A stretch of DNA of 39,254 nucleotides, taken from the UHGV virus genome UHGV-0143367, one strand, 5' to 3'. The stretch comes from a virus. Of the stretch, positions 4,692-39,254 are shown one piece after another. The number at the start of each line of letters is the position of its first letter. Position 1 is the stretch's first letter. The translations under genes and the position numbers were made by a program. The notes beneath the pieces are model-generated. The model did not search any database and was not told where the DNA came from. It saw only the letters and a list, made by a program, of their open reading frames with translations.

Positions 4692-4713
4692 AAAAAACCC
4701 CGCAGAGCGGGGT
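4692..4713 (-). terminator. Rho-independent terminator downstream of the lipoprotein moron
   Basis: CCCCGC-agag-GCGGGG stem-loop followed by a U6 run on the minus strand. Confidence 0.55.
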
Positions 4714-4736
4714 TTGTGTGGGGGTGGGGGATGAAG

Positions 4737-5114: not shown

Positions 5115-5122
5115 ATATCCCT

Positions 5123-10700: not shown

Positions 10701-11026
10701 ACTGTGTGCTCCATCAGCGGAAACAGCAGGTAAGAGACGCCAAGTTCTGACGGCGTTCCTTCGCCGGCCCCTGTCGGGTTGAGATACCAGTGGGCGACCA
10801 TCATCTGCATGGCCAGCTGGATATCGTCATCAATCAGGTACGCCGGCTGGCCTTCCGGAAGTTTGTCCAGTTCATCCTGCGATTCTGCCAGGCGACAGTA
10901 ATACGAGCGCTCGATACTGCGACGCGCGGCACCAATCAGGCGCGTCAGCAGATCATCATGCTCGGTAAAATCCAGCTCGAGGCGCAGCTGGACCTTAACT
11001 TCATCCAATGTCGGTTTCATGGTCAT
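10697..11026 (-). CDS. Head-tail connector protein (gp6-like)
   Basis: 109 aa, synteny directly after the capsid module. Confidence 0.45.
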   Translation of the reverse strand: MTMKPTLDEVKVQLRLELDFTEHDDLLTRLIGAARRSIERSYYCRLAESQDELDKLPEGQPAYLIDDDIQLAMQMMVAHWYLNPTGAGEGTPSELGVSYLLFPLMEHTV

Positions 11027-11333
11027 CGTCTCCCCGACGAGGATTCAACGCACGCTTCGCATCTTCTGGCCAGGCTGCAATTTTGCGCGTAACCAGCTCT
11101 TCAGCGTATTCAGCATCGAATGCAGCGACATCAGCGCGCGAATAGCGATGATATGGCCCCAGGAACACAACAGCGCGACGTTCCGGCGCGGATTTCACCG
11201 CTGGGACCACGGTCCCAATTTCATCACCGGTAATCACACCGTCGACAATATTGGAGGTATCAATAATCGCATCAACACCATCAACGGAAGTTGTGGTGTC
11301 CGCGTCTGTTTCTTTTTTAGGTTTTCCAGCCAT
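11001..11333 (-). CDS. Hypothetical head-module protein with an embedded SopB-box palindrome
   Basis: 110 aa ORF between major capsid and connector genes; the motif TGGGACCACGGTCCCA (11202-11217) encodes ...GTVVP... in frame. Confidence 0.4.
   Translation of the reverse strand: MAGKPKKETDADTTTSVDGVDAIIDTSNIVDGVITGDEIGTVVPAVKSAPERRAVVFLGPYHRYSRADVAAFDAEYAEELVTRKIAAWPEDAKRALNPRRGDDDHETDIG
11202..11217. repeat. SopB-box-like inverted repeat TGGGACC-AC-GGTCCCA, identical to the F sopC core
   Basis: Direct sequence match; lies inside a coding region. Confidence 0.65.
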
Positions 11334-16900: not shown

Positions 16901-16916
16901 TGGGACCGTGGTCCCA
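16901..16916. repeat. SopB-box-like inverted repeat TGGGACC-GT-GGTCCCA at the terS/terL junction
   Basis: Direct sequence match; overlaps the terS stop codon. Confidence 0.65.
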
Positions 16917-16917
16917 A

Positions 16918-17376
16918 TTAAAAATCGTCGAAATCGTTTCCCGCTTCTCTGCCACCTTGCCCCGGATTAGCAACTCTGACCCGGCTGTTCGGGTCCAGTT
17001 TCAGAACGACGCTCAGCCTGATGAGCTGCGAAATGTACTTATCGCGCGCTTTCACCGCGGCGCCCAGCTTCTGGCCGCCGGCAGCAGTTTCATCGCCTAT
17101 CCCGTCGCCTTTGATTTCCTGATTCGCGTCGTACAGCAGCTGCACGGTGTTGCAGTACTCCATCAGCAGGTAGCAATCTTCCATCTCAAAATTTCCACGG
17201 TCGATCATCAGCCGGCAGGTCCGTTTCCAGGCATCGACTGCCATATCACCCAGCAATTCCTCTGGCGGTGAAACGGCGCGAGTTACGGAACTGACCTGCG
17301 TGCCGGCATTGTTCGGTTTCCGGCCTCCGCCAGGAGAGCGCACTCCTGTCGCCATTCGTGCACCTCCATGCATCAA
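16918..17376 (-). CDS. Terminase small subunit
   Basis: 152 aa immediately upstream of terL; Gly-rich N-terminus. Confidence 0.7.
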   Translation of the reverse strand: MMHGGARMATGVRSPGGGRKPNNAGTQVSSVTRAVSPPEELLGDMAVDAWKRTCRLMIDRGNFEMEDCYLLMEYCNTVQLLYDANQEIKGDGIGDETAAGGQKLGAAVKARDKYISQLIRLSVVLKLDPNSRVRVANPGQGGREAGNDFDDF

Positions 17377-19839: not shown

Positions 19840-19859
19840 ATTGGGACCATGGTCCCAAT
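19840..19859. repeat. SopB-box-like palindrome ATTGGGACCATGGTCCCAAT
   Basis: Perfect 20-bp palindrome, same sequence as 4669-4688 and 32501-32520. Confidence 0.7.
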
Positions 19860-20173
19860 CAGGCAGCCTGTTCGCTGGCCACCGGTGGGTAATGCAGTGT
19901 GCTGTAGACCGGCAGCTCCATTTTGTACGCGTAGTGATACTCAGCGGTCGCGCCAGATGACGCCTGCCAGCCTGGCAGCATCAAAATGGCATCCGCACAG
20001 CGCAGCATCGCAAAGCAGATGTCCATATACTCGCGCGGCTCCATGCCTGCCGGTAGCGTGGCGGGATTAAGGACGACATGCCCATGCTTAGCCAGCCGCT
20101 CAGCTTCTTTGTTGAACGCCTCGCGGTTGAAATTCTCACTGCCTGTCATGGGGCCAGCGATGTAGACTTTCAT
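19859..20173 (-). CDS. DUF4406 / nucleoside 2-deoxyribosyltransferase-like protein
   Basis: 104 aa starting MKVYIAGPMTG, the characteristic N-terminal motif of this fold family as recalled. Confidence 0.5.
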   Translation of the reverse strand: MKVYIAGPMTGSENFNREAFNKEAERLAKHGHVVLNPATLPAGMEPREYMDICFAMLRCADAILMLPGWQASSGATAEYHYAYKMELPVYSTLHYPPVASEQAA

Positions 20174-22022: not shown

Positions 22023-23084
22023 TTATAATTCTGTAATTTCTGAGACAGTCTGTAAGAAGCGCTCCTCTTCCAGCTCAACGCCAATTGCACGCCGGCCCAG
22101 CTGCATAGCTGCTTTGACCGTTGCCCCCGAACCCATAAAGAAGTCGGCTACCAGGTCGCCAGGGCGAGTACTGGCTGAGATGATATCGATCATCATCTCT
22201 ATCGGCTTTTCACATGGATGTTTACCGGGATAATGCTGGACTGGTGGGTACGTCCAGACGTTCGTATGCGGTACGTCCTTTGTTACCCGGAATGGGCGCC
22301 GCAGGTTTTCGTACTGCTCACGCAAATCACCGTACTGTTTAACCAGTTCTGAATACTGCCCCGATAACTCGTTGTATTCCGCTTCCAGCACGGCGTGGTC
22401 GGACAGTAAGCCAGAGGTTTTCTTCTCTTTCGCTACCCGATTAAACAACGCCTGAAGAGCCTGGTATTGTTTTTCGCTGGGCAGTTGCCATTGGCTTGAG
22501 CTAAACCAGTGGCTGCACATTTGAGTACCCGTCGCCGCGTTAATCTCTGCTGCCGAAATACCCAGGCGCTGCCGGGTAGTTCGGAAGTATTCAATCAACG
22601 GCGCAAAGACCTGGCTTTTCAGTTCCCGGCACTTCGTCGCATACCCGGCATTACCTTTTGCGAATCCCTCAGAGCCATAATGTTCAGCAAACACAATGTG
22701 CTCAGTCGCCGGGAAATACGATCTCAAATCCTCTTTCCGGCAGCCGTTCCAACGACCGCTCGGTTTGGCCCAGATGATATGGTTTAGCACGTTGAACCGC
22801 TCGCCTATCAGCAGTTCTGTGTCAGATGACAGCTTAGGACCGCAGAATACGTACAGAGAGCCAGCCGGCTTCAGCACCCGCCAGAATTCCGCCAAGCACT
22901 CATCGAGCCATGCCAGATAATCAACAGCCGTCGGCCATTGGTTATCCCACGATGCCGCCTTTACTTTGTAGTAGGGCGGGTCGGTGATGATGGCATCGAT
23001 ACTGTTGTCCGGGAGAGTTTTTATGTATGCCAGAGTATCAGCACGCACAAGAACGGCACTGTTTATATTTACAGTGTTTTCCAT
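22023..23084 (-). CDS. DNA methyltransferase, beta-class (N6-adenine or N4-cytosine), orphan
   Basis: 353 aa; DPPY catalytic motif near the N-terminus (AIITDPPYY) and FxGxG AdoMet motif near the C-terminus (FFMGSGAT); no adjacent restriction endonuclease. Confidence 0.8.
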   Translation of the reverse strand: MENTVNINSAVLVRADTLAYIKTLPDNSIDAIITDPPYYKVKAASWDNQWPTAVDYLAWLDECLAEFWRVLKPAGSLYVFCGPKLSSDTELLIGERFNVLNHIIWAKPSGRWNGCRKEDLRSYFPATEHIVFAEHYGSEGFAKGNAGYATKCRELKSQVFAPLIEYFRTTRQRLGISAAEINAATGTQMCSHWFSSSQWQLPSEKQYQALQALFNRVAKEKKTSGLLSDHAVLEAEYNELSGQYSELVKQYGDLREQYENLRRPFRVTKDVPHTNVWTYPPVQHYPGKHPCEKPIEMMIDIISASTRPGDLVADFFMGSGATVKAAMQLGRRAIGVELEEERFLQTVSEITEL

Positions 23085-23220: not shown

Positions 23221-23244
23221 AAAAAAACCGCCATGAAGGCGGTT
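23221..23244 (-). terminator. Rho-independent terminator (AACCGCC-ttcat-GGCGGTT + U7)
   Basis: Stem-loop followed by a U run on the minus strand. Confidence 0.55.
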
Positions 23245-23317
23245 AGAATAAGCTGGTTACAGAAAACCCAACTTAGAAAAAGTTTAATTTTTTTGTGAAG
23301 TTTTTGCAAGCTCCAGG

Positions 23318-23335
23318 TTGGGACCATGGTCCCAA
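23318..23335. repeat. SopB-box-like palindrome TTGGGACCATGGTCCCAA
   Basis: Perfect 18-bp palindrome in an AT-rich intergenic region. Confidence 0.7.
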
Positions 23336-26754: not shown

Positions 26755-27676
26755 AAAGGCCCTGGTGGCGCTTATCGCGCGTGTTCCAGTTCTTCTTGGC
26801 GGCGTTCTCCAGCTGCTCGACGTCGCTATCATCAAACACAACATCGGTGGCCTCTTCGCCATGTGCGCCGCACTCATGACAGAAAACAACGGCGCCGGCA
26901 TACAGGCCATCCTCGCCATAGTTGGCTGGGTTCCACAAAGGTTTGTACTGGAGGCCATGCAGGTGGTGAACAAACACAGACGGCGGCCCGTAGCAGAACG
27001 GGCAGGGGGCCAGCCCTGAATCATCACTGTGGTGAAGGTCAGCGCCGCTGTCTGGAAGATGGGGATCGTTGCAGACGCTTTCCAGAACGCGGAGAACACG
27101 CTGGCAGTCGGCCAGCGAACGGTGAGCTTCAGCGCTGACAGTTACACCCTGCTGAACAACGGCCATCGACAGAGACTGTCGGACAAAGTTTCTATCCTTC
27201 ATAGAAAGCGCGCCGTACCACTGGCTGTAAGTCTCTTTCGCATCGATATGGCCAGAATGAATGCGGCTGTACATTTCCAGCATGGCCGCCGGTGCCAGAT
27301 CGTTATAAAGGCCAGTAATCAGGCAGGTCTGAGTAATCAACCGGGCATCAAATTTTGAGTTCCAGGCAAGCCACTTATGGCCGCCAATCGCGGCGACTAC
27401 CGCCGGATAAACTTCCTGCCAGGATGGGGCATCAGCAACCATTTCGTTGGTGATGTTGTTGATAGCGGTCGCAGCTGCGGGGATAGGGCGGGTCGGCTTA
27501 ACAAGCGTATCAAGCAGCACATCACCACGCATATTGATGATCGAGATTTCGATAATCTCATCATTATCTGCCATCCCGGTTGTTTCCGTATCAATAATAC
27601 GAAAATCACTTTTAAGCCATGTAGCCATTAACAGCTGTAAAATAGTCTTATGTGCATTATCCATCATTATTTCCAT
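26714..27676 (-). CDS. DnaQ-like DEDDh 3'-5' exonuclease fused to a C-terminal Lar-like zinc ribbon
   Basis: Exo I motif FRIIDTETTG near N-terminus, H-x4-D (HRSLAD) Exo III-like; C-terminal CPFCYG...CHECGA...AAKKNWNTR resembles the Lar restriction-alleviation family. Confidence 0.65.
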   Translation of the reverse strand: MEIMMDNAHKTILQLLMATWLKSDFRIIDTETTGMADNDEIIEISIINMRGDVLLDTLVKPTRPIPAAATAINNITNEMVADAPSWQEVYPAVVAAIGGHKWLAWNSKFDARLITQTCLITGLYNDLAPAAMLEMYSRIHSGHIDAKETYSQWYGALSMKDRNFVRQSLSMAVVQQGVTVSAEAHRSLADCQRVLRVLESVCNDPHLPDSGADLHHSDDSGLAPCPFCYGPPSVFVHHLHGLQYKPLWNPANYGEDGLYAGAVVFCHECGAHGEEATDVVFDDSDVEQLENAAKKNWNTRDKRHQGLYEYQPSGGQDANA

Positions 27677-27867
27677 ATTCTTTGTTGATATGTCGCTGAT
27701 TGTCTGGGGCGAAATCTGCTGACTGGCAGATAAACCTGAACATATTTAAGACCTGGCTGAAACGACGCCGTTATTGATACCCGGCGTCCTGATGCTTTGT
27801 ACTTATTTGCCAGCTCCGTAGCTTCCTGTTCTGTCATTGGCCCCTGCATAAACAGATCCAATGCCAT
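27667..27867 (-). CDS. Hypothetical small protein
   Basis: 66-aa ORF between exonuclease and rdgC-like gene. Confidence 0.3.
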   Translation of the reverse strand: MALDLFMQGPMTEQEATELANKYKASGRRVSITASFQPGLKYVQVYLPVSRFRPRQSATYQQRIWK

Positions 27868-27869
27868 AT

Positions 27870-28808
27870 TTATTCCTGTGGCGTGAGGCTATTATCTTCC
27901 AGATCCACGCCGATAAACTCTTCCAGCCCGGACAGAATTTGATGTGTGTAGTTAGTCACGAGGTGCATTTCAGCAATCAAAGCCTGCGATAAGTCATCGC
28001 GTTCCATATCATCGTCGTAATCGAACGATTTTAAATGAACGTTGCCATTCGGCGGCATGACAAGGTTGAAGTTCGCTAAGTTTTCAATTTGACCATTATC
28101 AGGGCGTTTATAAAGAGACATCTCAACTGAACGGGCCGTCATTCCGGAAAGAATATTTCGTGCATCGTCAGTATCATTCGATACGCCATCAAGCGTGATT
28201 TTTAAAGACGTGTCTTCACCAGTGAATAACGTTTTCCCATACGGCGAAATAGCCAATATAGGTGGCAGCTTATAGATGCTATTTCCCTCAGTCATATTCT
28301 TAGTAACTGCTGTGGAAGTAAAATGTGAATTCCCCCATGGCATCGCATGCAGACTGCCCAGCGTGTTACGCAAAAATGACAGTGCATCCTCACACTTTGA
28401 TGCCGTTCCGCCAGAAACCAACAGAAGGCGGCGAGCTGGCCACATCAGGATGTAGATCGCGGTGTTACTGATTGGGGAGTACTTCATCACATCGCTCTCA
28501 GCCTGGAAGCGCATCTCTTCCATCAGCTCCGGAGTAACCTCCCGACCGTCTACGATTACTTCATCGGTACGTTCGTTAAGCAGACGCTGAACCGCCAGCT
28601 GGTCAGGGCGGCGCTTGCTAGCGAAATAACGGAAAAGATACTTACCATCAACAGTAAGCATGCGTTCATCGCCAATTCTGGCCCAGCCTTTACCCTCACG
28701 TTCACAATCAGACAGGCCATCAAACGCACGTTCGATGAGTAGTTCGTTGATGTTTTCGGGTACTGCTGTTTTGCTGATGTAAGGGAATACGCAACGGAAG
28801 TTTTTCAT
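27870..28808 (-). CDS. rdgC: RdgC-like recombination-associated protein
   Basis: Matches E. coli RdgC segments as recalled (ASKCEDALSFLRNTLGSL vs AKKAEDTLALLRKSLGSL); start set to internal MKNFRCVF. Confidence 0.65.
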   Translation of the reverse strand: MKNFRCVFPYISKTAVPENINELLIERAFDGLSDCEREGKGWARIGDERMLTVDGKYLFRYFASKRRPDQLAVQRLLNERTDEVIVDGREVTPELMEEMRFQAESDVMKYSPISNTAIYILMWPARRLLLVSGGTASKCEDALSFLRNTLGSLHAMPWGNSHFTSTAVTKNMTEGNSIYKLPPILAISPYGKTLFTGEDTSLKITLDGVSNDTDDARNILSGMTARSVEMSLYKRPDNGQIENLANFNLVMPPNGNVHLKSFDYDDDMERDDLSQALIAEMHLVTNYTHQILSGLEEFIGVDLEDNSLTPQE

Positions 28809-29044
28809 CTTATTTTCCTTTATAACGACGATTAGCATTGGCCCTGGCCTTATCCATGGCTTGCTGACGTTGGCTCTTTGTATTTGCCTTTGCTACTGGC
28901 TGCACGCTGGGTTCTGCCTGCCGTTTCGCTGGCGGGGAACGCAACCGCGCAATAAGTAGAAATAGCGATGAGTGAAATCACCAGAATCGTGATAAGTGCG
29001 ATTCGTCCCGAAAAGGTTATCTGCCATAATTACCTCATCCGATT

Positions 29045-29062
29045 TTGGGACCATGGTCCCAA
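29045..29062. repeat. SopB-box-like palindrome TTGGGACCATGGTCCCAA
   Basis: Perfect 18-bp palindrome, intergenic. Confidence 0.7.
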
Positions 29063-29066
29063 TGAG

Positions 29067-29369
29067 TTAAATATTCATCTTTTTTGCAAGACTTTCATTT
29101 TGTTGCTCTGTATAGCGCTTTAACCAAAGCTCCTGAATATGCTGGTCACCTGGTTTATTTGCGCCACACCACTCCGCAATAACGGCATTTCGACACCAGT
29201 CAGGATGTGTTCTGAATCCGCAAGATGGACAAAACATCAAATATTCATTGCGTAGCTCAGATCTAACTAATTTCGGTTTTACTGCGTGGTGATGCATTAC
29301 TTGTTTGCAAAGGCAGGAAGGAATTTCACCGCCTGTTGCTGATATGCTTCTTCCGTAATTGGTCGACAT
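29067..29369 (-). CDS. Small Cys/His-rich (zinc-ribbon-like) protein
   Basis: 100 aa with CLC...H, CPSCG, C...C clusters; function unknown. Confidence 0.4.
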   Translation of the reverse strand: MSTNYGRSISATGGEIPSCLCKQVMHHHAVKPKLVRSELRNEYLMFCPSCGFRTHPDWCRNAVIAEWCGANKPGDQHIQELWLKRYTEQQNESLAKKMNI

Positions 29370-29991
29370 GTATTAACGCCTCCCGATCCATTTGAACACC
29401 GCAGGCCAACATGACATCCCAGCGATTTTTATAATTCTTCCGCCATAGGTCATATTTCACACCACATAGCTGGCTCAATTCTTCCTGGCTGTATTTAAGC
29501 TCGCCGCGGTTAATGAAATTTTTTGATTCCTGTAGAGCCAACCAGGCAAGTGCTTTTAAGTTGCTTTCAGTCTTGCCGTTCATTTTTGGCGATTTGCTTT
29601 CAGCCAAGTTAATCAGCAGGGAATGCCAGATATGTGTTGTCAGTATTGTTTGATATTCAAATGAAATTGAATCGCCGTAGCAGTAATTCAACCAGGATTT
29701 ATACGGCTCAGGCATTTTCAATAACGCGCTACGCCATGACACCTGGCTAAAAATGGCTGGCGATACCGGGATCATGCTCGTATGGTAACGCTTGCCTTCT
29801 CTGTAGCTGATTGGCTCGGCATCAATGACAATGACAGTGTCGTTATCGATATCAATTTCACGCTGCGGCTTTGCAGTAAATCGGCTCTGCAGTGGCGCAC
29901 GTTCTGCCATCGCGATGATCTGATTGCGGTGCGATTTTGAGAACGACAAAAGCGCTGCAGTAAGCTCGTTGCGAACAAAATTAAACTGCAT
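29326..29991 (-). CDS. Hypothetical regulatory protein (candidate late antiterminator Q by position)
   Basis: 221-aa ORF downstream of cro in the immunity region; no motif confirmed. Confidence 0.35.
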   Translation of the reverse strand: MQFNFVRNELTAALLSFSKSHRNQIIAMAERAPLQSRFTAKPQREIDIDNDTVIVIDAEPISYREGKRYHTSMIPVSPAIFSQVSWRSALLKMPEPYKSWLNYCYGDSISFEYQTILTTHIWHSLLINLAESKSPKMNGKTESNLKALAWLALQESKNFINRGELKYSQEELSQLCGVKYDLWRKNYKNRWDVMLACGVQMDREALIHVDQLRKKHISNRR

Positions 29992-30634
29992 ATTTGCCCC
30001 CTGCTTGATGGCCTAGCGGGCTTAGCGCACTAAGTTCAACGTGGTCCGGTTTAATGCCGGTGGCCATTTCTATATTCAGGATTTCCCGATAGAGGTATGA
30101 CGACAACTCATACAGGCGGTTCTGCAGCTGCTTCAGCGCGTGCTGGTCATCACTGCCATCGTATACACCGTCCTGGGCTGGCGCTGAGTTGGCGAGAACG
30201 GCACCGAATTTCACAGTGATCTCGTCAATTTCAGCGTCGACAGAATCAACACGAATACGGTTGTACTTAGGCATGCGGACCCATTGCAGACCCTGCATTG
30301 CGGCCAGCTTTTGAGAGCACTTATTACGGTACTCTTCCGGAAGACATGACAACCACGTTAACACCCAGTCTGCAGGCATCGGCGTATCACCAGCCAGGAC
30401 GCGCTGTGCACGCTTAATGCAACGGCTACGCCAGCGCATGTAATCCGTGACATTGATGCCTTCAGACCCCATATCAACAAGTCCCTGGAGTTCCAGAGCC
30501 GGAATCAAGCGCATTGTAGAGAATTGTGCGACACTGCCGCCGGTTTCATCGAGCATCCGCAAGGTTGCCCGTATAACCACTGATGACATTGTGTCTCGCG
30601 ATGGACGTTTATTCTGCCCCATGGTCTGAGTCAT
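29981..30634 (-). CDS. Hypothetical early protein downstream of cro (candidate regulator)
   Basis: Start at ATG 30634 with AAGGA Shine-Dalgarno; overlaps cro 3' end. Confidence 0.4.
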   Translation of the reverse strand: MTQTMGQNKRPSRDTMSSVVIRATLRMLDETGGSVAQFSTMRLIPALELQGLVDMGSEGINVTDYMRWRSRCIKRAQRVLAGDTPMPADWVLTWLSCLPEEYRNKCSQKLAAMQGLQWVRMPKYNRIRVDSVDAEIDEITVKFGAVLANSAPAQDGVYDGSDDQHALKQLQNRLYELSSYLYREILNIEMATGIKPDHVELSALSPLGHQAGGKYAV

Positions 30635-30815
30635 CCTTTTCTTTATGCAGTGTGTAATCAGATTTGAGTCGGCCATTTGTCTTAACTTCCAGCTCGTACT
30701 GCCTAAGCATGGGGACATCCTCTCCCCATTTGTAGATCGCAACGCGAGTACAACCGAGCAGTTCGCAGAGTTTGTTTATGCCGCCGCAGGCGGCTATGGC
30801 GTCTTTTGTTTTCAT
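30609..30815 (-). CDS. cro: Cro-like HTH regulator
   Basis: 68 aa; HTH segment (AIAACGGINKLCELLGCTRVAIYKW); divergent from the repressor gene. Confidence 0.7.
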   Translation of the reverse strand: MKTKDAIAACGGINKLCELLGCTRVAIYKWGEDVPMLRQYELEVKTNGRLKSDYTLHKEKDDSDHGAE

Positions 30816-30930
30816 GAAATGATACTAACCAAGCTATACAAGTTTTGTAAAGTGTACTTGTCAAAATTTACATTAATATTCCCTTTAGCCTTGTATAGCT
30901 AGCTATACAGATTTGATTTAATATCTCTCT
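30816..30930. promoter_or_regulatory. Divergent cro/cB promoter-operator region with 18-bp perfect palindrome TGTATAGCTAGCTATACA (30892-30909) and half-site AGCTATACA (30832-30840)
   Basis: Minus-strand -35 TTGACA (30859-30864) with 17-bp spacer to TTGTAT (30836-30841); palindrome lies ~20 bp upstream of the apparently leaderless cB ATG. Confidence 0.5.
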
Positions 30931-31560
30931 ATGGAAAAACGTGGTGATTGGCTGAAGGCTCGCCGTGAAGAGCTGAAGAAGCGAAATAAATCAAAGTTCT
31001 CAGTGAGAGCTGTTGCCGAACGCATCGGTATTACCGGTGCTGGCCTCTCGCATCTCGAAAACAGCGATGCTATGCCCGCGTTAGATCTGGCTATCAAGCT
31101 GGCGCGAGAGCTGGGCCGTCCTGTTGAATGGATCTTAACCGGTGCTGGCGGGGATGTGTTCCGTGGAGTCCCTGTTATTGGTTCTACTGCTACCGGTCCC
31201 AATCTGGAAATGATAAACAGCGGTCTGGCTCAAAACTGCCGGGAATTCGTTGATATCAATGTACAGGATGCAGCCTTATACGGCCTGATGGTCGATAACG
31301 ACGTTGCAGCGCCGTATCATATCGGTGAAGTACTGATCGCAGACCCTAATCGCGAGCCGGTGACAGGGGAAGATGTGGTGGTAGTCACAAAATCTGGCAA
31401 TGATACGTTTATTAAGATGTTAGCGTCTAAACGTGATGGCAAAGTGTTTCTTGACGCGCCGAACGACAGATCTCAGCGCGTGATAATCGATCTTGACGAA
31501 ATTATTTTGATTCATCCCGTTATCTGCGTGGCTAAATCTATAGCAGTTAAGGCCAGATAG
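30931..31560 (+). CDS. cB: Prophage repressor CB (CI-like HTH-XRE with C-terminal S24/LexA-like domain)
   Basis: 209 aa; N-terminal HTH (FSVRAVAERIGITGAGLSHLEN), C-terminal beta-rich domain; divergent from cro. Confidence 0.75.
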   Translation: MEKRGDWLKARREELKKRNKSKFSVRAVAERIGITGAGLSHLENSDAMPALDLAIKLARELGRPVEWILTGAGGDVFRGVPVIGSTATGPNLEMINSGLAQNCREFVDINVQDAALYGLMVDNDVAAPYHIGEVLIADPNREPVTGEDVVVVTKSGNDTFIKMLASKRDGKVFLDAPNDRSQRVIIDLDEIILIHPVICVAKSIAVKAR

Positions 31561-31580
31561 TAAATTTTAGTAACCAAGGT

Positions 31581-31610
31581 TTGTCAAATGCACTTGTCAG
31601 AGGCTATTAT
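31581..31610 (+). promoter_or_regulatory. Sigma70-like promoter (TTGTCA-18 bp-TATTAT) directed toward repA
   Basis: -35 TTGTCA at 31581-31586, -10 TATTAT at 31605-31610. Confidence 0.4.
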
Positions 31611-31703
31611 GTGGCGTGATAGCAATGATGAGTAAGAACTTGCCCCAGAGGTATAGTGCCAAGTGAGCACTTTTTAACCACCTCTGGATTCAGACAAATA
31701 AAA

Positions 31704-31731
31704 AGCCCCGGATGTGGCGTCCAGGGCTTTT
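31704..31731 (+). terminator. Terminator-like hairpin in repA leader
   Basis: AGCCCCGGA ... TCCAGGGCT stem (one mismatch) followed by TTTT. Confidence 0.4.
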
Positions 31732-31841
31732 CGGTGAAACAGGTCTAGAGTCAGCTCTTGTCGAAATGTGATTGGCGTTCACTAACAAAGATGCTAATCA
31801 AGACACAAGTGTGGAGTTGATTGTAGTTCGTTTCACCTGCA

Positions 31842-31868
31842 CTGCGCAACTGCGCAGCGTCTTTTTTT
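31842..31868 (+). terminator. Terminator-like hairpin plus T7 run ending ~10 nt before the repA start codon
   Basis: CTGCGC-aact-GCGCAG stem followed by CGTCTTTTTTT, then GGTGA Shine-Dalgarno and ATG. Confidence 0.4.
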
Positions 31869-31878
31869 GGGTGAAATA

Positions 31879-34800
31879 ATGAATTTAACGGAATATTTTC
31901 AACACAAATTTAACTCTGACCCGTTTTCGCTGCTTGATGCAGCATCAAATGAACTGAGTGATCTCGCGAACGCTGCCGGTATCGACTGGCATAAATGCGC
32001 TGGAGATATTCAGCTTTCTGCCTCTCGCGGTTCCGCTGAAAAATTCACAAAGTATGCCCACCATGGTCCTGCCGTTACTGATCCAAAGCTGAAAGGCAAG
32101 GTTGAGATTTACTCCCGCATGGAGTGTTCTCAGGACGGTATCAAATACCCGTTCATCAACTTTGTCTGTAAAGGTGCTGACGCTGGCGTATGGAGTGGCT
32201 TCCAGTTCCTTATCTCTGAATACCGTCGATACAAAGAACAGAACGGTGGGACCGTGGTCCCACTGTCTGCGCGTGAACTGGAGCAGCGTAAACGTGCTGA
32301 GGCGCGCCGCCATGAACGTGAGCGCCAGCAGGCTATCTCTGTGTTTATGGAGTCGCAGCGCCGCGACGCTGACCTGAACGAATACCTGCAGTTCTCCGCC
32401 GCATTCGCCAAGGCACCGGCAGAAGATGGTTCATGGCCATATGCGGTGAAGAAAGGCATCAGCTCTGTTTTCTCATACTGTAACGTAAGACGCGTAACCC
32501 ATTGGGACCATGGTCCCAATTCTAAAGCGGTTAAAAAACAAACTGTTATGGCGATTCCGCTGTCGCATATTGATGACCGTCGGGAAGACCGTGAATCTCG
32601 CGTTGGGCCGATTGTTGGCTGGCAGCGAATCACCGAGAGAAACGACAAGCTGCAGACCCGCGCTGTAGATTCCGGTGACTTTGCCGGTTCGTGTCACATC
32701 ATCGGCCAGCTGCGCGGCGCAACCAGGATCTGTGTTGTTGAAGGGTTCGCGACTGGTGCCAGCGTGTTCGCTGTAGCGAAAAAACGCTTTGATGCTGTTG
32801 TTGTGGCTGTGTCAGCAAATAACGTTATCAAGGTTGTTGATCAGCTGGTCAGCCTGTACCCAGGCATGGAAATCTGGTGCGCACTGGATAACGACCAGAA
32901 ATCGGCGCGGAATGGAAAAGGCAATACCGGGTTAAGAGTCGGCATCGATGTGATGAAGAAATTCCCGCAGGTCCGCTGCACATTCCCGATTTTCGACAGC
33001 AGCGAAACCGAATTAAGCGACTTTAACGATCTCCACCAGGCGCGCGGCGCCACCGAAACCAACCGCCAGCTGTTTTCAAAACAGAACCGCCTGCAGCTGC
33101 CAGGCAATTCCTTTGATGCTGAAATGCTGTCTCTGGCCGTTGCGCCGGTTTCCGATCGCCGCGCGTTCTCGCGCCAGCTGGTACGCTGCATTGATGCCGG
33201 CATGATGCAATGCCCGTCCAAGTTATCCCCGCAGGAGCTGATCTCGCTGATAAAAATGAAGCTGGACCAGCTCGGCGCCGACAAAGCGCTGCACGGTACC
33301 GTGTATAACCGCGTTAAACGCGCCTTCAAACAGAAATGCGACAAGGCCCAGGCTTTCCGATCATTCAGCGAGCGCGTAACGAACCCGGCAATACGCCCCG
33401 ACCACATCACCTATAAGCGGTTTGAAACACCCCACATGACCAAGGAAGTGCTGGATTACATCAAAGCACTGAGCGGCCCGGTAATCGTCCGTGCCGGCAT
33501 GGGGTCGGGCAAATCCAAACACTTGCTGCGCCCTATGATGCACAGCGCGCAGCGCGGCGTTTCGGTGGCGCACCGCGTTTCGCTGATTGGTGGCCTCTGG
33601 GACATGATGACGCGTGCCGACGATGGCCGTCGCATGAATTGCGACATCCTGCACTACCAGGACCCCGGCTATCAGGAGCTGGCGCCGTATGCCAGCAAAC
33701 TGACAATTTGTATTAACTCTATCGTGAAGGGCTGCTGGCAGCCACTGATGCGCAAACACGATTTCTTTGGCCTGGATGAAGCCACCCAGGGCCTGCGCGC
33801 CACGCTTTCCGGTAAAGCGATGGCGCACCCGGTTGATGTATTCAACCGTCTTATCGACTCTATCGCGTACAGCGATGACCACGCGCTGCTGGTTGATGCA
33901 GACGCCAGCGATATCCTGGTAGACCTCTGCGAACTGGCGCTGGCCAAACGCGAACAAACAGGCCTGTCGACCTGGACACAGATCCACGTCATCGAGCTGC
34001 CGGTTGATGTGAAGTACAAAAAAGCCGATGGCACGCGCGAAGCGCGCCGCGTACTTTACACCGACACCGATCGCATCATGGTTGAAGTACTGAAAGCCGT
34101 GGCTGCCGGCGAAAAATTCCTGCTGGCCACTGACTCAACCAACTTTGCCGAACAGTTGCTACTGCAGCTGCGCGACCGCTGGCCAGAAAAGAAATGGCTT
34201 TACGTCAGCCAGGACACAAAGCCGGATCAGGAAGTTGTGGCGTTTACCGACGCGCCGAACCAGCGCGCTAAACTCTACGATGGCCTTATTTATAGCCCGG
34301 CTATCAGTTCTGGCGTATCGATCGAAGAACGGCACTTCACCCGCCATTTCGGCTGCTTCTGCGGCCAGGTAGTGCCGTCCGACGCCATTCAGATGCTGCG
34401 CCGCGACAGGACCGCCACCGAATTTATGGTCGGCCTGAACAAGCTGCCTGGCGTACGCGAAGAGAACGCCGACAACATCCGCCGTGGGTTCCTGCAGGCA
34501 CTGCTGGAAACTGCCGAGATAAACGAAGAATTTACCGACGCCATCCTGGATGGCGACCGCCTTTCCCTTGGTCTGGCGGACACCACCTATGTCCGCATGA
34601 AATTTAAAGTTGCCGCGATGGAGGCCCAGGCCAGAAACGATTTCGCCAACAACCTGATCTGCATTCTCTACGCCGATGGCTATAACGTCAGCCACTTGGC
34701 CGAAGACTCGCTGGCCAGCGAAACCGGCAAAGAACTGCGTAAGGCATCGAAAGAGCGGGTCTGGGATATGACCGTTCTGCGCCATATGGAAGTGGAAACC

Positions 34801-35868
34801 CCGGACGAAGACGAACGCGACGAACTGATGGGCAAGCGATCACTATCTGAAGATGAGCAGGCGCAACTGGCGCGCTGGGATATCGAAAAAGAGTTGATGC
34901 TGGATGTCAGCCCGGAATCTCTGAAATTCCTGCTCGATGGCGGGAAGAAGAAACTGACGCTGGCCGAACTGATGACGATGGATGAAATGACCGCCGCACG
35001 CATTGACCGTGAGCAGCAGGCTTTCACGTTCACCTACCAATTCCGCAAAGGGCCGCGTAACGAATTTGTAACGATCACCGCGCTCAACCGCGAAGCAGCT
35101 GATGCGCAGTTCGACCGCATGCAGCCAGGAATAACCGGCTACACCGTCCAAAGCCGCCCGGTGATGGAAGTAACCCAGCGTACGTACGCATCGCTGCACC
35201 GTAAGGCCGCCAGGGAGTATTTCTCCACCTGCGGTATTAACCCAGATACCGGCGCCGGTGAAGCCAGCCAGGAAGGTATGGCGGAAGCTATGGCCAAACT
35301 TATGGACCCAACCACCGCGGATCGTTTCAACAACGTCCTGCGGTTCGGTGGCTATATAAACCCTAAAGGCCGCCAGAAACGCCCCGAGACGGTTTTCAAA
35401 CAGATCTGTGAGGCATTCGGTTACGCGACTCAGAAACGCCGCCTACCGCGTTCACAGGGCCTCGGTTACGTGTGGTCAATCGTCCCCGAATCCTGGGAAT
35501 TCATTCACGGAATTCTGGCGCGTCGCGCCGAGGCATCACTGTCGTTTGTCCAGATGAAACTGGATGTGGGGGCACCGGAAGAACCGGATCTCGATTGCCG
35601 ATCAAATATAGATGTAAGATCCCAATCTGGATCTGCTGAGACGGCATTTATTGAGGCAACGCTGACGACGATTGAAGAGGCTATCGCTGCGATGCCGGTG
35701 CCATTTGCATGGCTGAGAACCGCACTGACGCCGGAAGAACTGGCACAACTCGCGACTATGCCGCCACGGTTGATACAGGCGACGGTTGCCGGGCTGTTTA
35801 TGGCTGACAATATGTGGCAACTATCAGATGGCCAATACAACGAACTGAAGCGGTTGCAGGCGGTTTAA
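31879..35868 (+). CDS. repA: Replication protein RepA (primase-helicase) of N15-type linear plasmid-prophage
   Basis: About 1329 aa from ATG 31879 (ORF track begins at upstream TTG); Walker A GMGSGKSK; size and position next to cB and telN as in N15. Confidence 0.85.
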   Translation: MNLTEYFQHKFNSDPFSLLDAASNELSDLANAAGIDWHKCAGDIQLSASRGSAEKFTKYAHHGPAVTDPKLKGKVEIYSRMECSQDGIKYPFINFVCKGADAGVWSGFQFLISEYRRYKEQNGGTVVPLSARELEQRKRAEARRHERERQQAISVFMESQRRDADLNEYLQFSAAFAKAPAEDGSWPYAVKKGISSVFSYCNVRRVTHWDHGPNSKAVKKQTVMAIPLSHIDDRREDRESRVGPIVGWQRITERNDKLQTRAVDSGDFAGSCHIIGQLRGATRICVVEGFATGASVFAVAKKRFDAVVVAVSANNVIKVVDQLVSLYPGMEIWCALDNDQKSARNGKGNTGLRVGIDVMKKFPQVRCTFPIFDSSETELSDFNDLHQARGATETNRQLFSKQNRLQLPGNSFDAEMLSLAVAPVSDRRAFSRQLVRCIDAGMMQCPSKLSPQELISLIKMKLDQLGADKALHGTVYNRVKRAFKQKCDKAQAFRSFSERVTNPAIRPDHITYKRFETPHMTKEVLDYIKALSGPVIVRAGMGSGKSKHLLRPMMHSAQRGVSVAHRVSLIGGLWDMMTRADDGRRMNCDILHYQDPGYQELAPYASKLTICINSIVKGCWQPLMRKHDFFGLDEATQGLRATLSGKAMAHPVDVFNRLIDSIAYSDDHALLVDADASDILVDLCELALAKREQTGLSTWTQIHVIELPVDVKYKKADGTREARRVLYTDTDRIMVEVLKAVAAGEKFLLATDSTNFAEQLLLQLRDRWPEKKWLYVSQDTKPDQEVVAFTDAPNQRAKLYDGLIYSPAISSGVSIEERHFTRHFGCFCGQVVPSDAIQMLRRDRTATEFMVGLNKLPGVREENADNIRRGFLQALLETAEINEEFTDAILDGDRLSLGLADTTYVRMKFKVAAMEAQARNDFANNLICILYADGYNVSHLAEDSLASETGKELRKASKERVWDMTVLRHMEVETPDEDERDELMGKRSLSEDEQAQLARWDIEKELMLDVSPESLKFLLDGGKKKLTLAELMTMDEMTAARIDREQQAFTFTYQFRKGPRNEFVTITALNREAADAQFDRMQPGITGYTVQSRPVMEVTQRTYASLHRKAAREYFSTCGINPDTGAGEASQEGMAEAMAKLMDPTTADRFNNVLRFGGYINPKGRQKRPETVFKQICEAFGYATQKRRLPRSQGLGYVWSIVPESWEFIHGILARRAEASLSFVQMKLDVGAPEEPDLDCRSNIDVRSQSGSAETAFIEATLTTIEEAIAAMPVPFAWLRTALTPEELAQLATMPPRLIQATVAGLFMADNMWQLSDGQYNELKRLQAV
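32247..32262. repeat. SopB-box-like inverted repeat TGGGACC-GT-GGTCCCA inside repA
   Basis: Direct match; encodes ...GGTVVP... in the RepA frame. Confidence 0.65.
32501..32520. repeat. SopB-box-like palindrome ATTGGGACCATGGTCCCAAT inside repA
   Basis: Perfect 20-bp palindrome; encodes ...HWDHGPN... in the RepA frame. Confidence 0.7.
35585..35640. other. Candidate replication-origin element inside the 3' end of repA: four GATC sites in 47 bp with inverted repeat AGATCC...GGATCT
   Basis: GATC at 35587, 35600, 35618, 35630; the N15 ori maps within the 3' part of repA (recalled, not verified here). Confidence 0.3.
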
Positions 35869-35878
35869 GGGGATATCT

Positions 35879-36220
35879 ATGTCGACTACTGATTTTTTGA
35901 AAACACTGGATCGTGTCCAGCTGCAGTTCTGCCGGAATAAGTGCGACGAAATGCTTCGTGCTATCCAGGAAGAACAAAAGAAGGTCGCCTGGGCGGTAAC
36001 TGATGGCTCGGTCAACTACGGCTGGTACCGAACTGAGGACTACCTTAAAGCTGTCGAATGCCTGGTACGCGAAGCTGAGAAGCGCTGGAACGAAGAGACT
36101 GAAGAAGACAAAGGCAACCCGCAAACTCGCGGCTGGCTGAACTTTTCTATTCAGGGCCAGCGCCTGCCGGCGTCCGAATACGAAGCGCTGTTTGCTGATG
36201 GCCAGTGGGGGTTAACGTGA
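35879..36220 (+). CDS. Hypothetical protein, first gene of operon downstream of repA
   Basis: 113 aa; strong Shine-Dalgarno (AAGGGGA) 10 nt after the repA stop. Confidence 0.45.
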   Translation: MSTTDFLKTLDRVQLQFCRNKCDEMLRAIQEEQKKVAWAVTDGSVNYGWYRTEDYLKAVECLVREAEKRWNEETEEDKGNPQTRGWLNFSIQGQRLPASEYEALFADGQWGLT

Positions 36221-36597
36221 TCTACAAATATGAAAACTTGTGTGAGAAAGGATTCGTTCGAATTCCCGTAAGCAGGGCTACGCATAACAAAATGCTGCCA
36301 AACTGCAAGCAACGATTTGGAGCAAAAATTGAGTATTACTTCGAGCCAGAATCTCAGATATTCGAGGCACAGTATTTCACTTCGGCATGGATGAAGGTTT
36401 TGCTCATCGTTGTCATGTTTCTTCCTGCAATCGTCATGCAGGGTGTTCCCAGAACTATTCGTGACACTGGCGATTTAATTCACCAACGGGAAAGAGGGAA
36501 ATTTTCGTCTGATAGATGGTTTTTGAAACGTGAAAAGACGACAGATGGCGCACTTGAAAGTTATATCGACCAGAAACTACGTGAGGTAGGGGCATGA
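36205..36597 (+). CDS. Hypothetical membrane protein (non-ATG start)
   Basis: GTG start at 36205 or 36217 overlapping the upstream stop; one transmembrane helix (WMKVLLIVVMFLPAIVMQGV). Confidence 0.4.
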   Translation: MGVNVIYKYENLCEKGFVRIPVSRATHNKMLPNCKQRFGAKIEYYFEPESQIFEAQYFTSAWMKVLLIVVMFLPAIVMQGVPRTIRDTGDLIHQRERGKFSSDRWFLKREKTTDGALESYIDQKLREVGA

Positions 36598-36977
36598 TTG
36601 ATATTAACGTAAAAAAGCTAACTGACTACGATCTGGATGAGCTTAAGCAAGATATTGCACGAGAAATTGAACGCCGCGCCAGTGGCCCGACCCGCGTCGT
36701 TTATGTGGTGACTGAGTTTGGAGAGCATCGGGCCTTTGCTGATTTTCGCTGCGCGGCGATCTGCTTTTCTGACATAGCTCAATCTGTTCTGGAAGATGCA
36801 GGGACCAAAGAAGGAACGGAAATGTTTTATATGAATAAAGGTACCCTGCTTTATGGTATCAGACCTGTAGAAATGACGCTGAATGACTTTGAGTTGAAAG
36901 TTGAGCAGAAGTATTTCGACGATGTGTGCTACGAAAAGCGGCTGCAGGAAATGTTTCCAGAAACGGAGCTTAAATAA
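36594..36977 (+). CDS. Hypothetical protein
   Basis: 127 aa; ATGA overlap with upstream stop indicates translational coupling. Confidence 0.45.
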   Translation: MIDINVKKLTDYDLDELKQDIAREIERRASGPTRVVYVVTEFGEHRAFADFRCAAICFSDIAQSVLEDAGTKEGTEMFYMNKGTLLYGIRPVEMTLNDFELKVEQKYFDDVCYEKRLQEMFPETELK

Positions 36978-37111
36978 TTATTTATCGCAGAGGATGAACG
37001 AGGAAATTTTCGCAAAACATCCGGTAGAAATATTGGTGACAGTTTTCGGCATATAATTCAGCCGGATGCCGTTAGAGGTTCGTCCCTACGGGCTGGATAG
37101 GTCGGTTGTAA

Positions 37112-37133
37112 AACCGGGACCACGGTCCCGGTT
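37112..37133. repeat. SopB-box variant AACCGGGACC-AC-GGTCCCGGTT
   Basis: 10-bp arms around an AC spacer; inner arms GGGACC/GGTCCC as in the other copies, outer position differs (C/G instead of T/A); convergent intergenic region. Confidence 0.55.
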
Positions 37134-37140
37134 ATGTGAA

Positions 37141-39042
37141 TTAATTTTCTGGGAAATACGCAAACCATGCTGATTTCATGGCACTGCTGATACTATCCGC
37201 CGCGCCACTCCAGGCGTATAGCTGCCCCTTGTATTTGAAACGGATCGTCCAGCTGCCGTCGTCACTACGAACGGGCGCGGAGAAGCGTGGACGAGTGTCT
37301 ATTGGTACTGGTTTTTCCTCTTCGGCCTCGGCGGTCACGCCATCTTCTCGGCCTTCCTCTTCAGCTTCCAGCGCCTGGGTATCGTCACTGGTTTCCTCTC
37401 TATCGGCACCGCTATCGCCAGCGAGGTCGTCTTCACCATCCAGTTCGTCAGAGGTTATGACAATAGAGGGCGCATCTGCATTGTTAATCGTACTGCTCAT
37501 AGCCAGCGCCTCAGCAACAAAATCAAGATACCGGCGAACTAGCGTCGGGTTAAATCCAGCATCTCGTAATATTTTTGTGTTGATGACGATATCAGCTGAT
37601 TCCTCCACCAGCCGCTTTGTTGTTTCATGAATACGGATACCGGCATCGCCCCTGGCGAAGCCAGGCATTTGGTCGTCAAGCGCTTGTAGAGCAGCGAGGC
37701 GCTTATTTTCAATCCCCGTTTCCGGGCGCCAGCTGCGTGAGAAATTATGCAGTTTGAACTGTTTGTAGTGCAGCTGCGTATTTTCGTCGTCATGCCCCAG
37801 GATTTCAGAGAAAAAGACGTCCTCATCAACGTTTTTCCAGCGCGGGTCGTAGCGGAAAAACGCCTCATAGGTGATACGCGCATAAATTGCGCGCGTGTCT
37901 TTGAATGTTCGGCGGTCGTCGCCGAAGAACAGCTTCGCGTGCTGGTTAAATGTGTTACCAAGAATTGATGCGATGCGCACATTTGCGGCCCGGTAGCTAT
38001 CATCGTTCAACAGAGATCTGATTTCGTCAAAATCAGCCGCTGCGGGGCAACTTCTCAGTTCATTTAAACGTTGAACGAACAGGGCCGGGTCGCACAGCAC
38101 ATAAATTTTACGCCCCTTATCCTCGCCGGTTCGTTTTTTGGCCTGCCCGTAGAAAATAACTTCATACTTGCCGGTAACCTCAAATTCTCCCTGAACCATC
38201 ACCTCAATCAATCGACGCCCGGATACGGCTGCTAGCGCGAACGCCAGCGGCGCCATATCCTTACGTTGCGTGATAAGTGATGGTTCAAACGCCTTGTAGA
38301 TCTGCTCGGTCACAGCCTGCATATATTTGGGGTAGTCCAAGAGTACAGTTGACCGTTTCTTCTCGCTGAGCACCTCGCCCCAGCGCTGCTGTATCGATGA
38401 GCGTTCTGCCGGACTCAACTGCAGGTGATACAGAATTTCATGGTTGATTTTCAGGCCGTTCAGATCATCCAACAAGCGGGTTCCCTGTTGGAACGCGGCA
38501 TGCATTTCGGTTTCGACCGACTTCCAGTCTTGGCTGGTCAACGCGTTAAGATAGATGCTCCAGGCAGGGTATTTTTTTGCCAGGCGCGTCAATTTTTTCT
38601 CCGCAGCCGGTCCGAACTTCATACCCGAAAGCACCTCCGCCAGCGGCATAATTTCCTTCAGTTGGCCCTGTAGATTGCCGTATGCCTGACGAATATCTGC
38701 CGCAGGCATAGATTGCCACGCCTGTAATTCAGCACTGTAGGCGGGGTATTTTGCCGCTAACTTTTCAATGCTGCTGGTGAAGTGATGGTGCAAACGGTCG
38801 TCGAACTGTTTACGAATACGGGTCATATACGCGTTATAAGTATTGGCTGTAATGCGTTTCTTCAAACCGTTACCACGGAACTTCCTTTTATCTAAAAATA
38901 GCGCGTTTTTAACACGTGTAGCCGCAGCCTTATATTTTCGTGTCTTATCTCCCTGTGGGATGTCGGACGCTTCGATAGCGTCAACGTCCGCCACCAAATC
39001 AGAGATGATTTTACCAATTCCGCCATCGCCTAGCTTCGCCAT
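37141..39042 (-). CDS. telN: Protelomerase (telomere resolvase) TelN
   Basis: 633 aa; long blocks match N15 TelN as recalled (QGDKT, NALF.DKRKFRG.GL.KRITAN, HLQLSPAER.SIQQRW, MAPLAFALAAVSGRR, WKNVDEDVFF.EILGHDDENTQLHYKQFKL.NFSR.WRPE, MPGFARGDAG); acidic C-terminal tail; GAGGGGGG Shine-Dalgarno. Confidence 0.95.
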   Translation of the reverse strand: MAKLGDGGIGKIISDLVADVDAIEASDIPQGDKTRKYKAAATRVKNALFLDKRKFRGNGLKKRITANTYNAYMTRIRKQFDDRLHHHFTSSIEKLAAKYPAYSAELQAWQSMPAADIRQAYGNLQGQLKEIMPLAEVLSGMKFGPAAEKKLTRLAKKYPAWSIYLNALTSQDWKSVETEMHAAFQQGTRLLDDLNGLKINHEILYHLQLSPAERSSIQQRWGEVLSEKKRSTVLLDYPKYMQAVTEQIYKAFEPSLITQRKDMAPLAFALAAVSGRRLIEVMVQGEFEVTGKYEVIFYGQAKKRTGEDKGRKIYVLCDPALFVQRLNELRSCPAAADFDEIRSLLNDDSYRAANVRIASILGNTFNQHAKLFFGDDRRTFKDTRAIYARITYEAFFRYDPRWKNVDEDVFFSEILGHDDENTQLHYKQFKLHNFSRSWRPETGIENKRLAALQALDDQMPGFARGDAGIRIHETTKRLVEESADIVINTKILRDAGFNPTLVRRYLDFVAEALAMSSTINNADAPSIVITSDELDGEDDLAGDSGADREETSDDTQALEAEEEGREDGVTAEAEEEKPVPIDTRPRFSAPVRSDDGSWTIRFKYKGQLYAWSGAADSISSAMKSAWFAYFPEN

Positions 39043-39054
39043 GTGCCCCCCTCA

Positions 39055-39176
39055 TTATCGTAACAATATGCGCAAACATTACACCTAAAAGGCTAAAAAT
39101 CAACCTATAAATCATCGTAACATAATTCTAATTATGTGTAAATAATTATCGTAACTGTTAATTAATTTATCGTAAC
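39055..39176 (+). repeat. Four direct copies of ATCGTAAC (mostly TTATCGTAAC) between the telN start and the telomere palindrome; inverted copy GTTACG at 39193-39198
   Basis: Exact 8-mer at 39057, 39114, 39148, 39169 in an AT-rich stretch; candidate TelN occupancy/regulatory repeats. Confidence 0.55.
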
Positions 39177-39200
39177 ATCATTTGCATATACTGTTACGTT

Positions 39201-39254
39201 AAACGACACACATTATTAAATATACGCGCGTATATTTAATAATGTGTGTCGTTT
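39201..39254. repeat. Telomere resolution site (telRL-like): perfect 54-bp palindrome centred on TATACGCGCGTATA
   Basis: AAACGACACACATTATTAAATATACGC|GCGTATATTTAATAATGTGTGTCGTTT is its own reverse complement; central (CG)3 in TATA context resembles the N15 telO core; located ~160 bp upstream of the telN start. Confidence 0.85.

Follow-up and report, generated by a model that had tools for sequence, protein, structure and literature searches.

Dispersed F-type SopB boxes, two of them in repA, as probable centromere sites of an N15/PY54-like telomere phage-plasmid

The repA locus and the boxes of the window

The virus genome UHGV-0143367, a stretch of 39,254 nucleotides referred to here as the window, was analysed for a 16-bp palindromic box that recurs along its length and lies twice inside repA, the gene of the replication protein RepA. 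The window was taken as an N15/PY54-like telomere phage-plasmid because it carries a protelomerase gene, repA, phage genes and a telRL-type palindrome, and its boxes were compared with the sites bound by the SopB proteins of plasmid F and N15. The features of the repA locus were as follows.

31879-35868, plus strand: repA, 1329 aa, CyRepA1 family, with Toprim; carries two boxes
32247-32262: repA site 1, TGGGACCGTGGTCCCA, repA codons 123-128 (GGT GGG ACC GTG GTC CCA, read as GGTVVP)
32503-32518: repA site 2, TGGGACCATGGTCCCA, core of the 20-bp perfect palindrome ATTGGGACCATGGTCCCAAT at 32501-32520, read as HWDHGPN

Site 1 starts 368 nt into repA. Coordinates, sequences and peptides (GGTVVP and HWDHGPN) of the two palindromes were the same as those given in the first-pass annotation of this DNA, in which the palindromes had been described as centromere-like.

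The window was scanned for TGGGACC-NN-GGTCCCA with up to two mismatches, and ten sites were obtained. Eight were perfect (starting at 4671, 11202, 16901, 19842, 23319, 29046, 32247 and 32503) and two were near-copies, at 695 (TGGGACCACGGTCACA) and 37115 (CGGGACCACGGTCCCG), respectively. The chance expectation was 0.11 sites as estimated from 100 dinucleotide-preserving shuffles, none of which attained ten, in agreement with the earlier remark that such palindromes are improbable by chance. Deviations from the perfect box were confined to arm position 3 (at 695) and to arm position 1 on both arms (at 37115); G stood at arm position 3 in every box of the window, save for the single mismatch of the 695 box. 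The central dinucleotide was AC, AT or GT, i.e. purine-pyrimidine, at all ten sites, and a purine-pyrimidine centre was likewise found in 58 of the 61 perfect boxes of 13 elements. Six of the ten sites are in short spacers, and the other four fall within variable parts of the proteins encoded there, namely the charged linker after the N-terminal domain of RepA, the variable N-terminal part of a head protein, and the tail protein J, with G-T-x-V-P or W-D-x-G-P as the peptides read through the boxes. When one box in sopB, outside the window, was counted, the element held about 11 boxes.

Nucleotide-level conservation of the repA boxes

Conservation was estimated on codon alignments of repA. The first 400 repA codons of 14 elements were aligned, RepA identities going as low as about 40%, and every element (14/14) had a box at site 1. 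For the conservation ranking, five F-type repA orthologues with a mean nucleotide identity of 63% were used, which gave 1497 windows of 16 nt; Pantoea was left out of this set because MAFFT placed its site 1 box one codon out of register, the box itself being visible in the 14-element alignment. Site 1 ranked first of the 1497 windows with all 14 core positions invariant, and site 2 ranked second with 13 of 14. Invariant third-codon positions amounted to 34 of 504 in the five orthologues, and ten of those 34 were inside the two boxes. The fourfold-degenerate third positions within the boxes were all frozen, whereas 93% of the third positions elsewhere varied.

The positions at the box centre that are free to change alter the residue: site 1 has V, T or A there, site 2 has H or R, and the site 1 peptide was found as GTVVP, GTTVP, GTAVP and ATVVA. 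Between lineages, arm position 3 of the box was swapped symmetrically from G/C to C/G, by which GTVVP was changed to ATVVA. Among the 14 elements, no orthologue was found in which the peptide was kept and the palindrome broken by synonymous changes, the pattern that had been named beforehand as a sign of chance occurrence. The palindrome was conserved at the nucleotide level beyond what the amino acid sequence needs, and the dual constraint as coding sequence and cis-element, proposed in the first-pass annotation, was borne out by the ranks of the two boxes and by their share of the invariant third positions. Judged from these alignments, the DNA sequence appears to be the selected feature inside the coding boxes, the protein merely tolerating it.

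Site 2 was perfect in the window, in LSJC7 (Enterobacteriaceae bacterium) and in Xenorhabdus. PY54, P840, Salmonella and Pantoea each depart from the perfect box at a single base, at arm position 1 or 3, and in the first three of them the protein changes from P to H as a result. It was absent from the N15-type elements, where N15 lacks the second repA box because of a four-codon gap in N15-type repA at this place.

A second dispersed palindrome, CGTGAC-(CA/TG)-GTCACG, was observed at three conserved positions in N15-type elements: 28550, 33237 and 39269 in N15 (L001), 32783, 37663 and 43540 in phiKO2 (L002), and the corresponding positions of the Citrobacter (L052), E. coli (L053) and Pseudocitrobacter (L011) elements. 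One copy is inside repA, within about 10 nt of the location of site 2 in the F-type elements. This palindrome was absent from the window and from the PY54, Salmonella and Pantoea elements.

Agreement between box and SopB

The 16-mer of the window was letter for letter equal to the SopB-binding box of F sopC, TGGGACCACGGTCCCA (PMC3597684). Mutants of the F site have shown that changes are tolerated at arm positions 1 and 3, that positions 2 and 4-7 are essential, and that the centre must be purine-pyrimidine (PMC3177203).

The genes sopA and sopB were located on contigs L004 and L005, which were 100% identical to the window over 27141-39247 (12.1 kb) and continued past telRL, with sopA and sopB about 2-4 kb beyond it. 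SopA and SopB both scored above the NCBIfam equivalog cut-offs (752.8 against 725 and 444.2 against 274, respectively), and SopB matched the F SopB-DNA crystal structures (3MKY) with E = 5e-36 in phmmer. The base contacts of F SopB have been described (PMC2910045), and the contacting residues S189, R190, K191, I192, R195 and R219 were all kept (alignment ...AENISRKIIVRC...ELSAR...). The specificity for F or N15 is set by the recognition-helix segment (PMC2910045). This helix reads S-R-K in the elements with the TGGGACC box and D-R-N in those with the TGCGACC box, Pantoea being intermediate with D-R-K. As far as the sequences tell, the binding site and the DNA-binding helix clearly seem to switch together, and in place, across the phage-plasmid family. 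The earlier label "centromere-like" is in keeping with the identity of the box to the F sopC site, with the cognate sopAB on the same element and with the orthology of the repA site to N15 IR1.

Boxes outside repA

The other eight boxes of the window were found at the following places.

695-710: variant box TGGGACCACGGTCACA, mismatched at arm position 3, within the tail gene J, read as PVTVVPP on the minus strand
4671-4686: perfect box in the spacer between a tail gene (4737-5114, minus strand) and the gene of minor tail protein L (3907-4656, minus strand)
11202-11217: perfect box TGGGACCACGGTCCCA in the head-module gene 11001-11333 (minus strand), in the part encoding the variable N-terminus, read as IGTVVPAV
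16901-16916: perfect box TGGGACCGTGGTCCCA in the 36-nt terS-terL spacer
19842-19857: perfect box just downstream of a DUF4406 gene (19859-20173, minus strand), in a position resembling N15 IR4
23319-23334: perfect box immediately upstream of the late-promoter/terminator module that precedes a methylase gene (22023-23084, minus strand); N15 IR3 orthologue
29046-29061: perfect box in the spacer downstream of the Q region (Q, 29326-29991, minus strand) and upstream of an rdgC-like gene, matching the N15 IR2 position
37115-37130: variant box CGGGACCACGGTCCCG with both outermost positions changed, between a DUF5448 gene and telN, which are convergent

The first-pass annotation had placed palindromes inside J, inside a head-module open reading frame and across the terS stop and terL start region. 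The minus-strand open frame that runs from 2626 off the left end of the window matched Pfam GpJ FNIII-A, so that its identity as J stands, and the 695 box does lie inside it, with one mismatch. An identical 16-mer was present at the matching position of J in LSJC7, where the J proteins are 63% identical. The open reading frame 11001-11333 is a genuine gene, a homologue of phiKO2 gp7 and PY54 ORF7, and contains the 11202 box; a box was found in the same gene of PY54 (6566), P840 (6668) and Salmonella (22464), and in the Citrobacter element it was found in the spacer preceding the head gene, not within it. The location of the 16901 box at the terS/terL junction was likewise correct, but the overlap with the stop and start was not: with the true terL ATG at 16881, the box is intergenic, 1 nt past the terS stop (16918-16920) and 20 nt ahead of terL, whose product begins with MAAYPNVN as in PY54, Salmonella and phiKO2. 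The box is followed by T6 on the sense (minus) strand, which is terminator-like. Junction boxes were also present in PY54 (508), P840 (513) and Salmonella pAR-0403 (28417).

The 4671 box is adjoined by a terminator-like hairpin, and PY54, P840 and the Salmonella plasmid showed no counterpart of this box. Boxes at PY54 44409 and phiKO2 48618 stand after DUF4406-type genes, as does the 19842 box. The sequence at 37115 folds into a hairpin, with UUUU after it on the telN strand; boxes after telN were perfect in PY54 (26513) and P840 (26451), and the identical variant was found in Pantoea (2238). A one-mismatch box, TGGGACCGCGGTCACA, is located inside the 5' end of sopB, about 65 nt from the start (L004 3534-3549, outside the window), and this position is shared by PY54 (L003 22251) and P840 (L054 22465), where the sequence is TGGGACCGTGGTCGCA.

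The region of the 23319 box was aligned with N15, phiKO2, PY54 and Salmonella. In this alignment one type of box takes the place of the other, while the downstream TTTTTCTAAGTTGGG and the terminator are conserved; a late promoter with -35 and -10 elements is annotated at this place in N15 and phiKO2. The adjoining late-promoter module (23226-23310, minus strand) was observed to consist of a TTGCAA -35-like hexamer, the invariant TTTTTCTAAGTTGGG block and a strong terminator, AACCGCC...GGCGGTTTTTTT. The module, common to N15, phiKO2, PY54 and Salmonella, is presumably the target of Q antitermination.

The telomere phage-plasmid and its relatives

The features by which the element was assigned, apart from repA, were as follows.

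37141-39042, minus strand: protelomerase gene, TelN/TelK family, which marks the element as a telomere phage-plasmid
39199-39254: telRL-like perfect palindrome, 56 bp, at the right end of the window, with sopA and sopB farther on, outside the window

All four TelK/ResT domains were present in the protelomerase, and the Q antiterminator, terminase, capsid and tail genes are also encoded in the window. The telRL-type palindrome, AAACGACACACATTATTAAATATACGCG | CGTATATTTAATAATGTGTGTCGTTT, is complete and stops exactly at the right edge. Several TTATCGTAAC-like repeats were observed just before it, at 39054-39180, and are candidates for protelomerase or flanking binding repeats.

Megablast searches with the repA region and with the right arm, made on phage and plasmid collections, gave no close DNA relative, the best match being PY54 (73%), and relatives were therefore gathered by protein search. 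Five full-length relatives from the contig scan for RepA were used; the other 35 loci were distant Toprim proteins and were not used. The protelomerase recurred on contigs of about 46.5 kb from metagenomes and one genome assembly.

Other observations were made on these contigs. A pair of genes for a TacA1-like antitoxin and a GNAT acetyltransferase (TacAT-type toxin-antitoxin) lies between sopA and telRL (L004 5185-6046, outside the window). One metagenomic contig, L008 (ERZ28629107 scaffold_695), carries two inverted head-to-head copies of telN and its neighbours at 3181-7354, which is consistent with read-through of a hairpin telomere by the assembler and fits a linear prophage form.

Comparison with N15, F, phiKO2 and PY54

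N15 has four TGCGACC-NN-GGTCGCA boxes, which correspond to the IR1-IR4 oligonucleotides. The flanks of the N15 repA box match the IR1 oligonucleotide, and its codon position is the same as that of the window box at 32247. The N15 IR sites are said to have been shown experimentally to be centromeres, in the work of Ravin and Lane in 1999 and of Grigoriev and Lobocka in 2001. The sequences of the IR1-IR4 oligonucleotides are given in Table 4 of PMC7205306, where they are treated as centromere sites bound by N15 SopB. As in N15, the boxes of the window are single 16-bp boxes dispersed on a linear phage-plasmid with no array beside sopAB, and the agreement extends to position, with IR1 in repA, IR2 after Q and IR3 directly upstream of the late promoter. 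The equivalence of IR4 is approximate, as N15 IR4 is near the end of the right arm and the window box comes after the DUF4406 gene. Unlike N15, with its TGCGACC core, the window has the TGGGACC core of F type, and none of its boxes has the N15 sequence GTGCGACC-NN-GGTCGCAC, with C at arm position 3. It also has ten sites (11 in the element) against four, a second box in repA, and extra boxes in the virion module (terS/terL spacer, head gene, tail spacer and J). The element can be described, on its sequence, as an N15-like layout with predicted F-type specificity.

With F sopC the window shares the 16-bp box, the purine-pyrimidine centre and the SopB residues S-R-K-I, R195 and R219. F sopC consists of tandem 43-bp repeats beside sopB on a circular plasmid (PMC3177203, PMC3597684, PMC2910045), whereas the boxes of the window are single, 0.26-6.5 kb apart on a linear phage genome, and some of them are inside genes. 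No tandem 43-bp array of the F sopC type was present in the window, where no two boxes are closer than 256 nt, and in the 6.5 kb scanned around sopAB no array was found, only the one-mismatch box inside sopB. In phiKO2, four dispersed "putative plasmid partitioning sites" are annotated (NC_005857; Casjens et al. 2004), including a repA site whose position is orthologous; all four are of the N15 type, GTGCGACCACGGTCGCA, and are only four in number, in which they differ from the boxes of the window.

The F-type box was also found in PY54, P840, the Salmonella plasmid, the Pantoea plasmid and the LSJC7 and Xenorhabdus contigs, with 6-14 sites each at up to two mismatches; for PY54, vB_YenS-P840, Salmonella pAR-0403 and Pantoea ppDSJ01 the number was 8-14 copies per genome at the same threshold. 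Placements that the element shares with these relatives were the terS/terL spacer and the gp7-like head gene (both in PY54, P840 and Salmonella), the region behind telN (PY54, P840 and Pantoea) and the 5' end of sopB (PY54 and P840), besides repA site 1, the region behind Q and the place upstream of the late promoter. PY54, P840 and Salmonella have no boxes in the tail module, unlike the window. The records of PY54 and P840 annotate no boxes, and literature text searches, which did not cover the original papers, yielded no description of PY54 boxes.

Two of the relatives showed peculiarities of their own. Pantoea stewartii ppDSJ01 (L051), a telomere phage-plasmid, has a tail of the myovirus type (sheath, tube and baseplate), and in its 14 boxes (up to two mismatches) the outermost T/A is often changed to C/G. 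A contig of Erwinia tasmaniensis (L013; boxes at 1833, 1932 and 10363) carries asymmetric boxes, TGCGACCGTGGTCACA twice, once as repA site 1, and TGTGACCGTGGTCACA, which suggests a third variant at arm position 3.

Palindromes of the ParB family are reportedly known from chromosomal coding sequence too, the parS site of Bacillus subtilis within spo0J being ascribed to Lin and Grossman in 1998. There also the DNA serves two purposes, with another ParB family and another box, and on a chromosome rather than a phage-plasmid.

Spacing along the genome

The gaps between the ten boxes were 2.9-6.5 kb (maximum 6531 nt), except for the 256-nt repA pair. In an exploratory test based on the coefficient of variation (CV), the spacing was more even than random (P = 0.011 for all ten sites; P = 0.0006 with the repA pair merged, the merging being a post-hoc choice). 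Even spacing is not a trait of the family, since PY54 and the Salmonella plasmid have a large box-free tail module of about 16-18 kb. It is a speculative and rather doubtful idea that the PY54-like lineage has turned the four-site centromere of N15 into a near-"holocentric" array, with about 11 SopB loading sites every 3-6.5 kb over the full length of the linear genome, even within coding sequence (repA twice, sopB, the head gene and J). If it were true, the array may serve to keep SopB clamps, which would otherwise be lost by sliding off at the hairpin ends, all along the replicon, or it may let SopB regulate replication, late and packaging operons genome-wide. In linearised F, the ParB signal drops at the telomeric end (bioRxiv 10.1101/2024.03.26.585537).

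Interpretation and alternative explanations

The palindromes very probably serve a SopABC type Ia partition system as its centromere sites (parS/sopC type), on a linear, hairpin-ended phage-plasmid of the N15/PY54 group. At the level of sequence comparison, the boxes of the window are shown to be SopB-type sites under DNA-level selection and orthologous to the N15 IR sites. By analogy, SopB would bind, spread and act in partition on this element: a SopB dimer would bind each 16-bp box via its helix-turn-helix and, as with F SopB/ParB, would load more SopB on the flanking DNA; the SopA ATPase would position the partition complexes on the nucleoid, and each daughter cell would thereby inherit the low-copy prophage. 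The sites would be placed where the host protein tolerates them. The box at the late promoter may also influence late transcription. Reportedly, facilitation of late gene expression by the N15 Sop system was described by Ravin, Rech and Lane in 2008. It would be a precedent for the possible coupling of partition to replication or packaging that the first-pass annotation had suggested.

Several points weigh against this assignment. sopAB is not in the window itself and is known from the identical contigs beyond telRL. F SopB is non-functional with N15 boxes, which differ only at arm position 3 (PMC7205306); this position is therefore not neutral in vivo, and the position-3 variants at 695 and in sopB may be weaker sites. 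Furthermore, the boxes fold as stable RNA hairpins (predicted -9.9 to -20.5 kcal/mol), T-runs follow those at 16901 (T6) and 37115 (UUUU, between convergent genes, on the telN strand), and N15 IR4 lies within an annotated terminator stem-loop. These last features would be accounted for if the palindromes were chiefly RNA or DNA hairpins (terminators, attenuators or mRNA stability elements) and not protein-binding centromeres, which is considered improbable. A stem-loop with a T-run on the transcribed strand was present at 16901 and weakly at 37115, and not at the repA, J, head-gene, 23319 and 29046 boxes; the T-run is missing after most boxes, and a terminator within repA or J would be harmful. 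Hairpin function would permit many compensatory stems, yet one exact 16-mer, the F SopB site, recurs eight times. The one stem change seen between lineages (position 3, G/C to C/G) tracks the SopB recognition helix, and the unpaired centre, purine-pyrimidine in 58/61, follows a requirement of SopB and not of a hairpin. A hairpin or terminator was rejected as the general explanation; a secondary role as terminator is possible for 16901 and 37115.

The intragenic copies might instead be by-products of a conserved peptide motif (GTVVP or WDHGP) or of chance, as T-V-V-P is read in RepA, the head protein and J alike. This is hardly credible and was rejected, because the fourfold-degenerate third positions are frozen in the boxes with 93% of third positions variable elsewhere, the peptide itself varies (from GTVVP and GTTVP to GTAVP and ATVVA), the three host proteins are unrelated, and 0.11 sites were expected. 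It is highly improbable that the boxes are targets of some other factor with sequence specificity, be it a phage repressor or a restriction-modification or methyltransferase system. The element does encode several methylases, among them the DNA methylase of the window (22023-23084), and palindromes are typical of such targets, but 16 bp is far beyond the length of a methylase or restriction site, the sequence is that of the SopB site, the box variant of each lineage correlates with the SopB helix, and the N15 IR sites are named as centromere sites bound by N15 SopB (PMC7205306); methylase targets were rejected for their length and for the identity and correlation with SopB. Finally, the boxes could be SopB sites that were selected mainly for gene regulation instead of segregation, at least as concerns the extra ones within or beside repA, the late promoter and the packaging genes; SopB could silence or stimulate neighbouring transcription units. 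A box stands directly upstream of the conserved late promoter in 5/5 lineages aligned, boxes lie at operon boundaries, and there are 10-11 sites against four in N15; the intragenic boxes, however, are hundreds of bases from any promoter. The sequence offers no distinction between regulation and partition, and the two roles are not exclusive; regulation as the main role is given a small probability.

Significance

The core finding is a known kind of feature, because N15 is established to have dispersed SopB boxes, one of them within repA, and such boxes carry an annotation in phiKO2; no new mechanism is revealed. What is added is that the box specificity is of F type although the layout is dispersed as in N15, that repA holds a second conserved box, that the virion module and sopB have boxes too, that the element has about 11 sites, more evenly spaced than random in the exploratory test, and that site and protein switch together in place. 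The boxes are a natural example of overlapping constraints, in which a palindrome is maintained in genes at the cost of synonymous freedom and even of amino acid sequence. They enable the annotation of centromere sites in PY54-like telomere phages, and partition incompatibility with F-type plasmids is predicted because the box is identical. They also mark the sequences to be preserved when linear phage-plasmids or repA-based vectors are engineered or recoded.

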